A stretch of DNA of 23,417 nucleotides from Casimicrobiaceae bacterium. GTDB lineage: Bacteria > Pseudomonadota > Gammaproteobacteria > Burkholderiales > Casimicrobiaceae. This document shows, piece by piece, positions 1,799-21,229 of this stretch (positions are counted from its first letter, which is position 1; the number at the start of each line of letters is the position of its first letter). The translations under genes were made by a program, and so were the position numbers. The stretch is from assembly GCA_036825435.1 (NCBI GenBank), contig DAISYG010000025.1:1-23417 (forward strand). The letters run 5' to 3'. The notes below the pieces were generated by a model. It was not told the origin of the DNA. It was given only the letters and a program-made list of their open reading frames with translations, and did not search any database.

Positions 1799-3166
1799 TT
1801 ATTGGTCAAAAGACAATGTTGCGCTAAACCCACCATCAGAACGGTTGCTCGCACGGAATGTAAAACCATGCAGTTCGGCAATCCGCTTGACGATCGAAAG
1901 GCCCAAACCACTGCCTGTTTGTGTCTGCCCGGGCGGACGGAAGAAACGCTCTTCAAGACGATCGAGATATTCCGATGCAACGCCGGGACCGTCATCGTCA
2001 ACGCGAATGCCTTCGTGCGAAAGATGAACGACGATTTCGCCGCCGTCGTGAATATAGTGTGCTGCATTATCCACCAGGTTGCGCAACAACAGCGTCAGCA
2101 AAACCGAATTACCATTCAGTACAGGTGGCGGTGAAACCTCTTCAAATCGCAACACGATGTGTCGTTTATCGGCAAACGGTTTCACTTCAGCAAACACCGA
2201 TTCAACAATGGCGCGCCAGTCAATCGGTTCGGCGTCCTGAACCTCTCGCAAAGAATCCAGCCGTGATAAAGCCAATAATTGCTCGACGAGACGTGTCGCA
2301 CGATCAATTCCGATGATCAATTGATTCAGCGCATGGTTACGCGCCTCGTCATCATCACCGGCAAGTTGCGCGACTTCGGCCTGAACGCGTAGCGCGGAAA
2401 GTGGCGTGCGCAACTCATGCGAAGCATCCGCGGTGAAACGACGCTCATGAACCAGCGCATCGGCCATATGCTGAAAAAGCTTGTTCAATGCCCGCACCAA
2501 CGGTTGAACTTCGGTTGGCACACGGTCGGGAGCAATTGGTGTGGCATCGCCTGGATTTCGGTTCGGCAATTCTCTTGCTACTGCACGCAGCGGAGAAAGT
2601 TCGCGGCTGATCAGCCAAACAATCGCAATCAACATCAAAGGCAACGTTAACAACCATGGTAAAAGAGTTGTGGCAATCAGTCCCAGCGTCAAATCCTGTC
2701 GGAATTCCAACTCCTGGCCAACCACGATGCGGAAACGTCCATCCTGAGACGTCAGATAGAAAAAACGCCAAAGCTCATCTTCGTCATCATCGTCGTCACG
2801 TAAATAATTGTTAATGAAGCCGTTGATCGAAGTACTGAATGGTATGAACCGTCCTTTGTCACCATCGTTGAGAAACATCTGTCCATCAAGGGAAAAAACG
2901 GCAAAAGCCAGGGCGTCATCTTCTTCCTCGCCCTCATCGCCTTCCTCTATAACATGTGATGTTTTGGGTAAACTAAACGATCGATTCTGAAACAACGCAT
3001 CAAGGTCGGCATACGCCAGACTCTTGGCAAAAAGTATTTGCTGTGTATCGAACAGTTCATTAAGCGCATGACGCGTTTGAAAATAAGAAACCGCGCTGAT
3101 CACCAACCAAATAATCAGAGCGACGGCTGAAAAGAAAACCGTCAGACGCAAACGAAGGCTTTTCAC
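1799..3166 (-). CDS. Two-component sensor histidine kinase of the BasS/QseC/PmrB type. It has two TM segments, a periplasmic sensor domain with poly-acidic tracts, and HAMP, HisKA and HATPase_c domains.
   Basis: 455 aa. H-box [14 protein letters not shown]1 [17 protein letters not shown] and TM2 [24 protein letters not shown]. Periplasmic acidic stretches [11 protein letters not shown] and DDDDDEDE. C-terminal G-boxes DDDGPGV and GSGLGLSIV. It overlaps the upstream response-regulator gene by 4 nt (ATGA). Confidence 0.9.
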
Positions 3167-3840
3167 GACTGATGCTCCTGAGGAACTTCATCCAGAACAT
3201 AACCGATGCCGCGCACCGTGCGAATAACCTGATTACCCAGCTTTCGGCGCAGATGATGAATATGAACATCAATCGCGTTGCTCTCGATTTCGCTTTCCCA
3301 GTTGTACAGTTTTTCAATGATCATTTCGCGCGGCAATACTCGTCCTTTGTTCTGCATGAAAAGTTCGAGCAGCGCCAACTCGCGTGCCGCCAGCACCACC
3401 GGCATTCCGTGGTGTGTGACCGTGCGGGAGGCCGGATCAAACGTCAGCGCACCACATTGCAACACGGCGGTCGCTTCCCCGTGCCGTCGCCGAATCAGGG
3501 CGTTAAGCCGCGCTACCAATTCACTCAGCGCAAATGGTTTGACCAGATAATCATCGGCGCCCGCGTTAAGCCCGGCGACACGTTGATCCAACGCGTCGCG
3601 CGCGGTCAGGATCAGCACGGGAACATCTTGCTTATCCTGTCGCCATCGCGCCAGCACATCCATGCCGTCGAGCCCTGGCAGACCGAGATCAAGCACTACC
3701 GCGTCGTAAGGGGCAGACGCAAGCGCCTTTTGTCCGGCAATACCATCACGAAACCAATCCACGGCAAAACCGTACCGGAACAAGCCCGCTTTGAGACCAT
3801 CACCGATCAGCGGATCATCTTCCAAAAGCAGGATGCGCAT
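3163..3840 (-). CDS. OmpR/PhoB-family response regulator (BasR/QseB/PmrA-like)
   Basis: 225 aa. Receiver motifs [29 protein letters not shown] and [14 protein letters not shown]-terminal winged helix [12 protein letters not shown]. It is translationally coupled to the kinase gene. Confidence 0.9.
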
Positions 3841-3860
3841 GATGGTTTATTCGCTCGCTA

Positions 3861-4142
3861 TTATTTGTCCGGGCGAGAATGAATCAACGCCCCGTCAGCG
3901 TCGTTGAAATACACTTTGACGCGTCGCTTTTCCTTATCATAGCCTTCGATCTTGTAGCAATTATGTTCATACTCGAATTCGCGTACTTGATAGCCATCTT
4001 GCTCCAGTTTGAGGAAAAATGACGACAACAACATCGGTTGCGCCGCAGGTGCTTTGTTGCAATAGCGATCATCGTCGGCAAATGCGGGCGTCGCCAGAAA
4101 AGAAGCGGCGATGATGATCGGAAGAATGAGATGCTTTTTCAT
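3861..4142 (-). CDS. PepSY-domain periplasmic protein, first gene of the two-component operon.
   Basis: 93 aa. Signal peptide MKKHLILPIIIAASFLATPAFA. A YEHNCYKIEGYDKEKRRVKVYFNDADGALI PepSY-like core. SD AGGAG 7 nt upstream. Its stop codon lies 20 nt from the response-regulator start. Confidence 0.7.
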   Translation of the reverse strand: MKKHLILPIIIAASFLATPAFADDDRYCNKAPAAQPMLLSSFFLKLEQDGYQVREFEYEHNCYKIEGYDKEKRRVKVYFNDADGALIHSRPDK

Positions 4143-15299: not shown

Positions 15300-16550
15300 T
15301 TAACCAGCCTTCAGCGACACCAGACCATTCAACACCTGATCCAGGCCACCCACCACCGAAATGCGGTCGATCCGTTCGGCCACGCGCTCCAGGGTTTCCA
15401 GTTCCTTGAGGCGCAACGCCACCGGGTTGTCTTCCATCACCTTGGCGGTATTGAGCAGCGAACGTGTTGCGTTGGTTTCTTCACGACGGCGGATCACGTT
15501 GGCTTCCGCCACTTTCTGCGCTTCCACCACGCGGGCAAGAATATCCTTCATCTCGCCCGGCAGCACGATATCGCGCACGCCGAGGCTCATCACTTCAAGA
15601 CCAAAACCTTCCAGTTTGGTTTTCAAATGTGCGCTGACCATCTCATCAATACTCTGCTTGTTTTCAAGAATCGCATCGAGCGTACGCGTACCCACTGCCG
15701 CACGCAAACCGAACTGCAATTCGCGGTACAAGTATTCAACCGGCTTGTTGACCTGCGCAAACGCCAGTGCCACATCGGTAAAGCGCCAGTTGGCCACCAG
15801 CGTCAGACGCAAACCAACGCGATCCTTGGTCAGGATTTCCTGACCGCTGACCTCCATCGCCTGCAAACGCGTATCCACCAGTTCAAGTTGCACCTCACGG
15901 TTGAAGCGCCAGAATGCACGCAAGCCGGGCGACAACAATTGCTCCACCTTGCCGTCGATGCGCAACACACCAACATGGTACGCGGGCACCTGCGCGACCA
16001 ACACGCCGTCCAGACCGATCACCGCACGGTTTTTCAGGTTGGCCGCGTTGAGCTGCTTCGCCACCTTTTCGGGCAATTCGGTATGGTCTTCCAGCTTGAA
16101 ACGCTCCAAACGGTGCTGCTTCAAACCTTTCCAGACATAGTGCCGTGCGCCCGGTGCCAACACCTCAACAAGGATATCGTTCTCAAAACGCAAACCTGTT
16201 TCATTTTCTTCCAGCACCATGGTGATGAAATGTTCTTCCGCAACCTGCGGATCATTCATCAGCAAATATTCCACCACATGATTTGCATGCATCACGCTGT
16301 CCTGTACGCAATTGCCCATCGTCCGTCTTTTCAGCGGATCGAACAGCCAATAGCGGCCAGGCGCAAGAATCCGTTCAAAATCGTCATCACGAAACAAAGT
16401 GCCCTTTTCGTTGTGCTTCACAACATATCTTTTGAAAAACAACATATTCATTCTCCCATCAATCGCCAACCTGTCGCCGGTTCGACGGACTTCCTTCTCG
16501 GCACCTGCGAGGAGGCTCATCACAAAATCCATGTTCATCTGGCAGCGCAC
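15300..16550 (-). CDS. SPFH/band-7 (stomatin/HflKC-like) domain protein. It has an uncharacterised N-terminal domain of about 170 aa and no TM anchor. It is the first protein gene of the RtcR-controlled operon.
   Basis: 416 aa. The C-terminal half carries the SPFH signature: VLRIDGKVEQLLSPGLRAFWRF...ILTKDRVGLRLTLVANWR...LGVRDIVLPGEMKDILARVVEAQKVAEANVIRRREETNATRSLLNTAKVM. I see no hydrophobic helix. The start is uncertain, with several in-frame Met in the first 11 codons and no clear SD. Confidence 0.75.
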   Translation of the reverse strand: MRCQMNMDFVMSLLAGAEKEVRRTGDRLAIDGRMNMLFFKRYVVKHNEKGTLFRDDDFERILAPGRYWLFDPLKRRTMGNCVQDSVMHANHVVEYLLMNDPQVAEEHFITMVLEENETGLRFENDILVEVLAPGARHYVWKGLKQHRLERFKLEDHTELPEKVAKQLNAANLKNRAVIGLDGVLVAQVPAYHVGVLRIDGKVEQLLSPGLRAFWRFNREVQLELVDTRLQAMEVSGQEILTKDRVGLRLTLVANWRFTDVALAFAQVNKPVEYLYRELQFGLRAAVGTRTLDAILENKQSIDEMVSAHLKTKLEGFGLEVMSLGVRDIVLPGEMKDILARVVEAQKVAEANVIRRREETNATRSLLNTAKVMEDNPVALRLKELETLERVAERIDRISVVGGLDQVLNGLVSLKAG

Positions 16551-16698
16551 GGTGTTGCTGTGCTTGCGAGGTTCACACCGACTTCATCATTCGCTTCGTC
16601 ACCGATGCAGATTGGGCGTCGGCCAAACCGGCGGCGGCGCTTGCGCGATCCGCAGTCGGCAGGTATTACATTTATAAAAGTGTCATCAAGAATGACTT

Positions 16699-16789
16699 GC
16701 TTTGGAGCGGGACTTGAACCCGCGACAGACCGATTCCTCGTCGGTTACTCTATCCAACTGAGCTATCCAAATACGGGATTCGAACCCAT
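16699..16789 (-). ncRNA. tRNA-like element (tRNA mimic or pseudo-tRNA) in the leader of the rtc operon. A 74-nt cloverleaf is preceded by an extra T-arm-like hairpin.
   Basis: Minus strand: ATTTGGA-TA-GCTC-AGTTGGATA-GAGT-A-ACCGA-CGAGGAA-TCGGT-CTGTC-GCGGG-TTCAAGT-CCCGC-TCCAAAG-C. The D-arm, T-arm, U8, G18G19 and C48 are canonical. The anticodon loop has G33 and anticodon AGG. The acceptor stem has an A1xG72 mismatch. No CCA is encoded. Immediately 5' of it (16773-16789) lies ATGGGTTCGAATCCCGT, a second T-arm-like hairpin. Confidence 0.5.
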
Positions 16790-16874
16790 GCCTTAACGGT
16801 TTCCAATAGACAAGCATCAAACAGCAGCGGCATACGCACAGACAACAGCCGAAGTCCGGTTCGTGCGCACCGGT

Positions 16875-17156
16875 GGGGCTAGAGCGTGCCGACACGAGTT
16901 TTGCTATTGTCATTGATCGGCACGGCGGGCCAGACAAGGCGGAAAACGCAACGCATGGTGGTTCCCATGGGCAAGTTTTCCAACGCAGTATGGCGCGCTG
17001 TGCCGTTCAACCCGAAGGGCTGGCACTGGTAAACAGCCATTCTTCGTCATTCGTCGTTTATTTGGATTAACCAAACTGCTCTCCTCATTCCTCGACTAGC
17101 CGCTTACCAGTACCAGTGGCAACAACAAAACCCGTGTCGGCACGCTCTAGAACCCC
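16875..17156. repeat. Long-range 22-24-bp inverted repeat (GGGGCTAGAGCGTGCCGACACG / CGTGTCGGCACGCTCTAGAACCCC) enclosing about 235 nt of non-coding sequence in the rtc operon leader.
   Basis: Bases 16875-16898 pair with 17133-17156, with 18 contiguous identical base pairs plus a flanking GGGG/CCCC. This would form a long closing stem in the minus-strand transcript. The only ORF inside (16873..17070 +, 65 aa) is on the wrong strand and has no support. Confidence 0.5.
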
Positions 17157-17200: not shown

Positions 17201-17216
17201 TGCCAGTTCTGTGCCA
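17201..17216 (-). promoter_or_regulatory. Sigma54 (RpoN) promoter driving the rtc operon leftwards, presumably activated by RtcR.
   Basis: The minus strand reads TTGGCACAGAACTGGCAAT. The -24 element TGGCAC and the -12 element TGGCA, separated by 5 nt, match the consensus TGGCAC-N5-TTGCA at 9 of 10 core positions. It lies about 145 nt upstream of the divergent rtcR start, with an AT-rich region in between. Confidence 0.6.
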
Positions 17217-17360
17217 ATAAATCGCTGACGCTGAAAATAACTGCAAGTCTTTGTATTAACAGATATAAAATTTTTTCATGAGTTTCTGCTATCAAATTTC
17301 CCCATTCATTTTTCTATTTTTGCTAGAATATTTGATATATTTTTATATAAAATGATAATC

Positions 17361-18950
17361 ATGAAGAAGACGGTGGTCATCGGTTTTCTCGGCACGCAGC
17401 TCGACAATGGCGGACGCGGCAGCGACCGTTGGAAAAAATGGCGCCCCAGCATCGCCATCTGCCAGCAGGAAAATCTGCCCGTACATCGGATTGAGTTGAT
17501 TCACGATGCACGCAGCCGCAGTCTGGCGGGGCGCGTCGCCGAGGACATCGTTTCGGTATCGCCACACACCGAGGTGCGGCACATCGAAAAACAATTACGC
17601 GACCCCTGGGACTTTGAAGAGGTCTATACGCTGTTGCTTGATCTGGCGCGCTCGTACCCGTTCGACACCGAAAACGAAAACTATCTGATTCACATCACCA
17701 CCGGCACGCACGTCGCGCAGATCTGCTGGTATCTGCTCACCGAAGCACATTATTTTCCAGCGCAACTGTTGCAGGCATCGCCACCACTCAACCGTAAAGG
17801 CGTGCTCGACCGTGCAGGCACGCATGCGATTATTGATCTGGATCTTTCCCGCTACGACAAAATCGCACAGCGTTTTCGCGTCGAGCAAGCCGATACCGTC
17901 AGCCGCCTCAAGTCCGGCATTGCCACACGCAACCCCGCGTTCAATACCATGATCGAACGCATTGAGCGGGTGGCCGGACGTTCGCGCGCGCCGATGCTGC
18001 TGGTCGGCCCCACCGGAGCGGGCAAATCATTCCTCGCGCAACGCGTTTATGAATTGAAACGTGAGCGACAACAACTCAAAGGCCGCTTCGTCGAAGTCAA
18101 CTGTGCCACGCTGCGCGGAGATGCTGCGATGTCGGCATTGTTCGGCCACGTCAAAGGCGCGTTTACCGGCGCACAGTCGGAACGCGCCGGGTTGCTGCGC
18201 TCGGCGCACGGCGGCGTGCTGTTCCTCGACGAAATCGCCGAACTGGGACAGGACGAACAGGCGATGCTGCTCAAGGCCATTGAGGAAAAACACTTTCTTC
18301 CGTTCGGTGGCGACAACGAGGTCAGCAGCGATTTCCAACTCATCGCCGGTACGCACCGCGATTTGAGGCAGCGCGTTCGTGAAGGACTTTTCCGCGAAGA
18401 TTTGTACGCCCGCATCAACCTGTGGACGTTCACCCTGCCCGGTCTTGCCAAACGCACCGAAGATATCGAGCCGAACCTGGATTACGAACTTGAGCGTTAC
18501 GCATGCGATTACGGTGTACAGGTTCGCTTCAATGTCGAAGCGCGCCGCCATTACCTGACATTCGCCTGCTCCACCGAAGCGCAATGGCCCGGCAACTTTC
18601 GTGAATTGACTTCCAGCGTTACCCGCATGGCAACGCTATCGACGGGTGGGCGCATCACCGAGCAAGATGTTCTCGATGAAATCGCCCGTTTGCGCGAAAG
18701 CTGGCACGAGCCTGCCCGTGCGGATCAGGTTGCCGTCGTGCTGGGCGATGCTGCACAGACCATCGACCTGTTTGACCGCTGCCAGCTCAATACCGTACTG
18801 CGGGTTTGCCACGACAGCCGAACCCTGTCAGAAGCCGGACGCACCTTGTTCGCTGCGTCGCGTCAACACAAAAAACAAACCAATGACGCCGACCGCCTGC
18901 GCAAATATCTGCTGCGCTTCGGACTGGATTGGGAGGCGGTACATCGGTGA
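17361..18950 (+). CDS. rtcR: RtcR: sigma54-dependent transcriptional activator with an N-terminal CARF domain, an AAA+ domain and a C-terminal HTH.
   Basis: The N-terminus MKKTVVIGFLGTQLDNGGRGSDRWKKWRPSIAICQQ...YLIHITTGTHVAQICWYLL is collinear with E. coli RtcR. Walker A GPTGAGKS. Sigma54-interaction motif GAFTGA. The ORF track starts at 17352 (MIIMKK...). 17361 matches the E. coli start and gives 529 aa. Confidence 0.9.
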   Translation: MKKTVVIGFLGTQLDNGGRGSDRWKKWRPSIAICQQENLPVHRIELIHDARSRSLAGRVAEDIVSVSPHTEVRHIEKQLRDPWDFEEVYTLLLDLARSYPFDTENENYLIHITTGTHVAQICWYLLTEAHYFPAQLLQASPPLNRKGVLDRAGTHAIIDLDLSRYDKIAQRFRVEQADTVSRLKSGIATRNPAFNTMIERIERVAGRSRAPMLLVGPTGAGKSFLAQRVYELKRERQQLKGRFVEVNCATLRGDAAMSALFGHVKGAFTGAQSERAGLLRSAHGGVLFLDEIAELGQDEQAMLLKAIEEKHFLPFGGDNEVSSDFQLIAGTHRDLRQRVREGLFREDLYARINLWTFTLPGLAKRTEDIEPNLDYELERYACDYGVQVRFNVEARRHYLTFACSTEAQWPGNFRELTSSVTRMATLSTGGRITEQDVLDEIARLRESWHEPARADQVAVVLGDAAQTIDLFDRCQLNTVLRVCHDSRTLSEAGRTLFAASRQHKKQTNDADRLRKYLLRFGLDWEAVHR

Positions 18951-20906: not shown

Positions 20907-21229
20907 TGGTGGGCCCCCTGGGAGTCGAACCCAGCACCAACGGATTATGCGTCCCACTACGGCTTTCACCGCCCCTTTCGGGTTTGTAGGCTGGACTGTC
21001 TCTTGTCTTTACGACTCGCCCGTTCAGTCTCTACACCTTCCCGCCGTTTGCGGCGGGCTTGGCTCGGGATTGCCACGTGTCGGCCACAGAGGGTTCCCCG
21101 AATTTGAGCGATTCTACGACGACGCAGAGTGAACTTACCTCGCCGCAACCCAAAAACAGCGCCATGCGGTGAACGTTTAGGCGCTGTTCGTCAAGTCCGC
21201 TGCTCTAACCATGCATGAGCTAGAGGCCC
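20907..21229 (-). tRNA. tRNA(CAU) gene (tRNA-Ile2/Met-like) interrupted in the anticodon loop by a group I intron of about 244 nt. The exons are 21229-21194 and 20949-20907.
   Basis: 5' exon (minus strand): GGGCCTC-TA-GCTC-ATGCATGGTTA-GAGC-A-GCGGA-CT. 3' exon: CATAA-TCCGT-TGGTG-CTGGG-TTCGACT-CCCAG-GGGGCCC-A-CCA. Joining them gives a 79-nt tRNA with a 7/7 acceptor stem (one G-U pair), a canonical D-arm and T-arm, and anticodon loop CUCAUAA. It is overall very similar to E. coli tRNA-Ile2 (ileX). The 5' exon ends in U and the intron ends in G, as group I splicing requires. Confidence 0.75.
20950..21193 (-). ncRNA. Group I self-splicing intron (subgroup IC3-like, the Azoarcus/cyanobacterial tRNA-intron type). 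It has no ORF.
   Basis: The intron (minus strand) contains TCAAATTCGG, GGCAAT...CCGAGCCAAGC and GAAGGTGTAGAGACTGAACGG. These correspond to the conserved J3/4-P4, P6-P7 and J8/7-P7 core segments of the Azoarcus tRNA-Ile intron. A P2-like hairpin ACAGCGCC...GGCGCTGT sits near the 5' end. The terminal nucleotide is G. The exact splice junctions are provisional. Confidence 0.75.

Follow-up and report, generated by a model that had tools for sequence, protein, structure and literature searches.

Bacterial MITEs are characterized by terminal inverted repeats (TIRs), 5'-TA-3' termini, target-site duplication and long stem-loop transcripts (PMC2229807). The Correia or NEMIS elements of Neisseria are small, non-coding MITEs that carry TIRs, end in 5'-TA-3' and have a target duplication. 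They are intergenic and co-transcribed with their neighbours, their ends pair, and the duplex is cut by RNase III (PMC2229807). The RUP elements of Streptococcus pneumoniae are thought to be mobilised at TA by IS630-Spn1, and the ERIC/IRU and Caulobacter CIR elements are transcribed intergenic repeats with a conserved RNA structure, which in CIRs has more than one arm (PMC2229807).

The bacterial Y RNAs (YrlA, RF02553), which bind Ro60/Rsr, are about 100 nt long and are conserved at their locus. [quoted passage not shown] The preprint describes a tRNA look-alike adjoining a Band-7/slipin gene and rtcB, and states that it was never validated.

The window, which is the whole 23,417-nt stretch of DNA analysed here, contains an RtcR-controlled RNA-repair operon on the minus strand, with the genes in the order slipin/Band_7, zf_Tbcl, RtcB and RlaP (Table 1). 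An inverted repeat in the leader of this operon, read in a first-pass annotation as the closing helix of a possible large structured RNA, is very probably the TIR pair of one copy of a non-autonomous transposon (MITE) that was inserted at a TA in the apical loop of a leader hairpin, H1. The family to which this copy belongs is like Correia/NEMIS in being small and non-coding, with TIRs, TA termini, dispersed intergenic copies and ends that pair, but it is unrelated to them in sequence. Correia elements are about 105-155 bp long, form A+T-rich simple hairpins, are found only in Neisseria and in some cases carry an IHF site, whereas the element described here is 266 bp long, G+C-rich and folds as a heavily covarying three-way junction, and the family has a wider range of hosts.

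Table 1. Positions of the operon, leader and element features in the window
Feature	Position	Strand	Details
RtcR gene	17352-18950	divergent from operon	RtcR/CARF and sigma54-activator domains
sigma54-type promoter TGGCACAGAACTGGCA	17216..17201	-	-24 GG and -12 GC at consensus spacing
Hairpin H1, 5' half GGGGUUC	17150..17156	-	from ortholog comparison
Complete element copy (putative MITE)	16880..17149	-	270 bp with both TAs; 266 bp between the TAs (16882-17147)
5' TIR GAGCGTGCCGACACG	17133..17147	-	TA before it at 17149-17148; aligns with the family TIR GGGCCTGTTNAC
Arm P2	17020..17116	-	single-sequence fold agrees with family consensus structure
Hairpin P3 CCC-UUC-GGG	17011..17019	-	from family consensus structure
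Arm P4	16913..17010	-	conserved strands GCGUUG (16986-) and GCCUUG (16940-)
3' TIR CGTGTCGGCACGCTC	16882..16896	-	followed by TA at 16881-16880
Hairpin H1, 3' half G-CCCC-A-CC	16866..16879	-	runs into invariant motif CCGGUGCG (16873-16866)
T-arm-like hairpin CAUGGGUUCGAAUCCCGU	16773..16790	-	directly upstream of b7a-tRNA; conserved in orthologs
tRNA-like element (predicted b7a-tRNA)	16772..16699	-	Rfam tRNA model, 46.5 bits
slipin/Band_7 gene	15300-16550	-	first of the operon genes

The helix formed by the repeat lies some 35 nt past the inferred transcription start, and the genes downstream of the insertion are intact. The position given in the first-pass annotation, about 30-55 nt past a predicted sigma54 start and upstream of a tRNA-like element, agrees with the promoter and tRNA-like element listed in Table 1. 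ARAGORN reports the latter as 'Pro AGG'; position 33, however, is a G, and A1 and G72 are mismatched. Going by its neighbours, the slipin/Band_7 gene and then RtcB, it is the predicted b7a-tRNA. The inserted element occupies a separate hairpin, some 110 nt further upstream.

The inverted repeat had been described as 22 bp long. It is present where it was reported, but consists of 18 + 4 bp with a 2-nt bulge between them. The 18 nt of CTAGAGCGTGCCGACACG at 16879-16896 are perfectly complementary to 17133-17150, and the outer GGGG (16875-16878) and CCCC (17153-17156) pair only over the bulge at 17151-17152. The arms also reach further inward than noted previously, each being 37 nt long (16879-16915 and 17114-17150) and the two being 86% complementary, with a spacer of 198 nt. 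When the minus-strand RNA from 17170 to 16860 was folded, the minimum free energy was -163 kcal/mol, compared with -106.6 +/- 5.2 for dinucleotide shuffles (z = -10.9), and none of the 100 shuffles folded as stably. The fold has a closing helix of about 35 bp that encloses three hairpins. The structure of this RNA is far above chance level, and the very stable closing helix predicted for the minus-strand transcript was recovered.

The earlier opinion that the helix encloses no credible ORF also stands. Neither the 65-aa (plus strand) and 83-aa (minus strand) ORFs in the element nor a 53-aa JGI gene call within it have a Pfam match, stops fall at differing places among the homologous copies described below, and no ORF is conserved between copies. 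The possibility of a small conserved ORF starting from an ATG that follows the apical hairpin was weighed and discarded, as this codon is ATA in the window and four further copies and the frames terminate at varying places among copies.

Loci for comparison were gathered via the slipin protein, and consisted of 80 genomic loci and two contigs with the rtcR-slipin-rtcB arrangement. These 82 orthologous loci are from Rhodocyclales, Burkholderiales, Pseudomonas and others. The equivalent of the promoter in the orthologs is GGCACG-N4-TCGC[AT], and the distance from the promoter to the invariant motif CCGGTGCG is 70-78 nt in more than 30 orthologs but 342 nt in the window. Likewise, rtcR and the tRNA-like element are 315-360 nt apart in most orthologs, 418 nt apart in one (L003) and 580 nt apart in the window. 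The orthologous leaders are about 270 nt shorter than the leader in the window. At the site of the difference, the orthologs read GGGGTTCC-AAAA-CCCCGCCGGTGCG (with a longer 5' context, ACAGGCCAGGGGTTCC-AAAA-CCCCGCCGGTGCG) and the window reads GGGGTTC-TA-[266 bp]-TA-GCCCCACCGGTGCG (longer 5' context, ACAGGTTCGGGGTTC). The boundaries of the element were set by this comparison. Using blastn and a profile search, the element was found in none of the 82 orthologous rtc loci.

Taken together, the leader distances and the base-level comparison with the orthologs place the extra DNA in the apical loop of H1, which is a real, conserved hairpin. In orthologs, H1 has the form GGGG-UUCCAAAA-CCCC, GGGG-UUCUGAA-CCCC and similar. 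Its stem covaries (GGGG/CCCC, GGGA/UCCC, ACGG/CCGU and GUGG/CCAC, plus an outer GGY/RCC helix), and its apex varies in length, with an extra helix there in Burkholderiales. This conservation was judged by direct inspection and with alifold, using an alignment that shows register shifts. Folding the reconstructed empty leader as a single sequence gave no useful signal (z = -0.19). The reconstructed empty site, GGGGTTC-TA-GCCCC, is compatible with the ortholog loops and would mean that the TA was duplicated. In the alternative, GGGGTTCGCCCC, the TAs would be part of the element. We infer the former, namely that the flanking TA is a target-site duplication rather than part of the element.

Copies of the element were found elsewhere. 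A BLAST search against plasmids revealed an intergenic match in a Halomonas replicon (E = 2e-21, with 168 nt of the core aligned at 75% identity) and, starting from the Halomonas copy, further copies were found on Azotobacter chroococcum and P. aeruginosa plasmids. The plasmid copies, found in four plasmid records, are each intergenic and flanked by unrelated genes, and one of them takes up the spacer that separates an acyl-CoA dehydrogenase gene from a CaiB gene. A search pattern built from the columns common to five BLAST-related copies, with 25 positions fixed, matched at least 120 metagenome contigs, some of which contain several copies. The pattern was also found at three places on two viral contigs; a BLAST search of the element against phage genomes gave no match. 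The host range includes Gamma- and Betaproteobacteria, plasmids and viral contigs. The family was not identified in the literature, where it was sought by TIR sequence and MITE keywords.

An alignment of 43 copies was used to derive an nhmmer profile and a consensus fold. The window copy, at 17149..16880, is a full-length match to the profile (142.9 bits, E = 6e-42) and belongs to a divergent subfamily (143 bits versus about 190). An exact scan of the metagenome contigs for the TIR variant of the window, GAGCGTGCCGACACGNGTTTTG, found no other copy in a collection that does not include the source contig.

The TIR consensus of the family is GGGCCTGTTNAC, also written GGGCCTGTT[ACG]AC. A TA is present at both flanks in the window copy and in all 51 complete unique copies, the flanks differ between all copies, and the target preference is Y-TA-R. 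Including the TAs, the length is 269-270 bp in 36 of the 51 unique copies. Past the first 12 nt or so, the sequence of the arms varies between copies yet stays complementary within each copy. One locus (L112, 3597-3776) carries a 179-bp TA-flanked element with the same TIRs and an unrelated interior, indicating that the core is not needed for end recognition. In another (L171, 7560-7582), a bare TIR-TIR palindrome, TA GGGTCTGT GAACAGGCCC TA, is present, which is possibly a deletion or excision remnant.

Two findings that the first-pass annotation had itself listed as counting against a structured-RNA reading, absence of the repeat from orthologous loci and its identity with the TIRs of a mobile element that has numerous copies elsewhere, were both made here, and the footprint of an inserted element, which it had offered as one alternative, is borne out. 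The data show the insertion with its boundaries and TA flanks, the lack of the element in the orthologs, the many copies elsewhere in unrelated contexts and the conserved family fold. Several features that mark a MITE were found, namely TIRs, small size (266 bp), lack of coding capacity, dispersed copies and presence or absence at orthologous sites.

TA targeting is characteristic of the IS630/Tc1-mariner group and points to this group here. The MITE is probably of the IS630/Tc1-mariner type, and would be mobilised in trans by a DDE transposase of that type. As with RUP, the insertion is at a TA, and two Azotobacter copies of the present family have an IS630-family insertion sequence located exactly at a flanking TA. 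However, the TIRs of these ISs are unlike those of the MITE, and while the TIRs of RUP, which is 107 bp long, are also those of a known IS, no autonomous or parent IS with TIRs matching the present family was found in the 1.4 Mb of collected loci. A search for empty sites using the plasmid flanks gave none that were informative and exposed the adjoining IS630 copies. The same IS630-family IS (TIR GTGTTATGACACAGCTAAATCTG) is found in two Azotobacter plasmids, in L085 (1319-2501) and L087 (about 2714-3897), in one case at the left end of the MITE and in the other at the right, and the target was CTAG both times.

The consensus fold of the family includes 86 pairs in 10 helices. The two ends of the element form P1 (23 + 7 bp), which leads to a three-way junction bearing two long arms, P2 and P4, along with a tiny hairpin, P3. 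In the window copy, the minimum-energy fold is the same as the family consensus fold. The P2 strands GAGGAGAG (17086-17079) and AACGACGA (17058-17051) may be drawn as alternating G-C and tandem G.A pairs, and the apical hairpin of P2 is GUUUGG-loop-CCAAAU at 17076-17060. The invariance of GAGGAGAG and AACGACGA is partly due to the search pattern; the five copies found by BLAST share both independently. Compensatory changes are seen in P4, for example GGAAAAC/GUUUUCC versus CGGGGC/GCCCCG. In the alignment, 95.5% of the paired cells are able to pair, versus 36-42% in controls slid by 1-3 columns. Changes on both sides were seen for 66 of the 86 pairs, and there were 837 cells with two-sided changes compared to 135-198 in the slid controls. 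None of 500 shuffles reached any of the observed measures. The highly structured RNA that had been predicted from the window alone is matched by a family fold that is conserved with strong covariation. A dispersed repeat with a phylogenetically conserved RNA structure recalls ERIC/IRU and CIR, which differ in size (ERIC is about 127 bp), sequence and host range.

The orientation of the copies is not even. Among 80 unique full-length copies, 45 are in the sense and 11 in the antisense orientation relative to two co-directional flanking ORFs (p = 5e-6), and 18 of 55 co-oriented upstream ORFs (loci L088-L207) end on a TAG made up of the flanking TA and the first G of the element, though both the orientation and the stop-codon counts rely on crude GC3-weighted ORF calls. 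In these G+C-rich genomes the element is often found on stop codons, regenerating a stop. We know of no description of ERIC/IRU or CIR with a fixed-length three-way junction or a preference for insertion at stop codons. Orientation-dependent effects on mRNA have been described for ERIC. In the window, the family reference strand corresponds to the minus strand, the one read from the operon promoter, and the copy is in the majority (sense) orientation.

The fixed length and the very strong covariation exceed what transposition needs, and 'just a MITE' may be an incomplete description. A tentative extension of the MITE explanation, possible though well short of probable, is that the core serves as a functional RNA module with effects in cis on whatever transcripts it enters, via processing, stability or protein binding, and that here it alters the processing or stability of the b7a-tRNA/RtcB transcript. 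Consistent with this are the extreme covariation in all ten helices, the fixed length of 269-270 bp, the element with the same TIRs and an unrelated interior, from which the core appears to be dispensable for end recognition, and the sense bias, which the window copy shares. However, the orientation test was built on crude gene calls. On the reference strand, G.U pairs also outnumber A.C pairs, 153 to 57, including at a G.U/A-U position (columns 76-92) that was left unconstrained by the search pattern, but the ratio falls to 73:57 when two invariant G.U pairs are left out. Part of the sequence conservation is due to ascertainment, as 25 positions were fixed by the pattern, and hairpin-templated correction of the quasi-palindrome, or a requirement for single-stranded DNA, could keep the arms complementary. 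The 266-bp element may conceivably, then, be a mobile, strand-specific structured RNA that spread by TA targeting and was retained for its RNA function, though on the sequences compared here we consider this doubtful. If true, a mobile-RNA element placed in the first leader hairpin would rewire processing of the b7a-tRNA/RtcB repair transcript.

That the helix instead closes an RNA specific to the Rtc leader and evolved in place, be it Y-RNA-like, riboswitch-like or a processing domain, is very unlikely. Points in favour of this reading, which the first-pass annotation had preferred, are the very stable fold and its location in the transcribed leader of an RtcR-regulated operon, related operons in Salmonella being known to encode Y RNAs. 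The element has in common with Y RNAs a long end-to-end stem around a structured module and an RtcR-controlled operon with rtcB, but it differs in being mobile: the same element is found between unrelated genes in other phyla and on plasmids, and it is missing from 82 of 82 orthologous loci. A Ro60/TROVE (Rsr) gene is not among the called genes of the locus, and the sole match to the YrlA model, at 16790-16747, is outside the inserted element and reaches just 17.5 bits, the gathering score being 69. In Rfam 15, no family matches the window copy (E <= 10) or nine loci with other copies (E <= 1), and only tRNAs and noise were seen at gathering and permissive thresholds.

Least probable is an RNA-level mobile element, such as a self-splicing intron, in a T-loop-like hairpin: the element is structured, covarying, mobile and of intron-like size, and small group I introns are found in tRNA loops of related Betaproteobacteria, but no Rfam intron or ribozyme family was matched in the same searches, the symmetrical TA-GGG...CCC-TA inverted-repeat ends are typical of DNA transposons, both orientations are represented among the copies, and the fold, a simple three-way junction, lacks the pseudoknotted group I core.

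For the MITE insertion, consequences for the leader can be proposed. From its sense orientation, the copy in the window would be co-transcribed with the operon leader and would fold on its own, with the ends pairing into a helix of about 31 bp stacked on the host GGGG/CCCC stem and the three inner arms forming the three-way junction. Because the element would fold autonomously on top of the host stem, H1, the downstream GGUGCG/CGYAUGCC stem and the b7a-tRNA could still fold, and the insertion would thus be tolerated. By analogy with Correia elements, the long, perfect duplex of about 31 bp is a plausible, even likely, RNase III site, and processing of the leader may change.

At this locus, a misleading trail is closed by assigning the large helix to a transposon insertion and not to a novel domain of the Y-RNA-like or riboswitch kind. 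The conserved leader is the shorter RNA of the orthologs, made up of H1, the GGUGCG/CGYAUGCC stem, the T-arm-like hairpin and the predicted b7a-tRNA. The insertion also shows that 270 nt can be accommodated in the apical loop of H1, which should be useful for dissecting the predicted b7a-tRNA transcript. More generally, the family is widespread, has no entry in Rfam 15 and shows covariation on a par with well-established structured RNAs. In genome scans, elements of this sort can pass for novel RNA genes, and they may act as portable RNA modules that alter the expression of operons.

Several further features of the leader were seen in the comparison. The conserved leader module takes up about 130 nt between the sigma54 promoter and the b7a-tRNA (16773-16873 in the window, minus strand) and is without a match in Rfam. 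It consists of H1 (GGY..GGGG-loop-CCCC.RCC), a long covarying hairpin with an invariant base, GGUGCG/CGYAUGCC, that includes an AU bulge, a variable region and the T-arm-like hairpin GGGUUCGAUUCCC. This layout, a conserved stem plus a tRNA-like part, is Y RNA-like, yet the operon is without an Rsr gene. The b7a-tRNA has been kept upstream of the slipin gene, at a distance of about 250-330 nt, in most of the 80 loci. Its 'anticodon' is free to vary among loci (Met, Ile, Asn, Thr, Val, undetermined and others), the anticodon stem covaries, and two tandem tRNA-like elements are present in many Pseudomonas loci.

In the window, a hairpin, GUCAUUCUUGAUGAC, followed by ACUUUUAU, is found 3 nt past the b7a-tRNA (16682-16696, minus strand) and could serve as a weak terminator, or as a processing signal that separates the RNA genes from the slipin ORF. 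The longest slipin ORF is 416 aa (GTG start) and the JGI call is 406 aa. Nearly all homologs are about 379 aa, and the true start is probably about 30 codons further downstream. The sequence of the window is identical to that of a contig in JGI metagenome 3300000059 up to about position 21093; the window runs to 23417.
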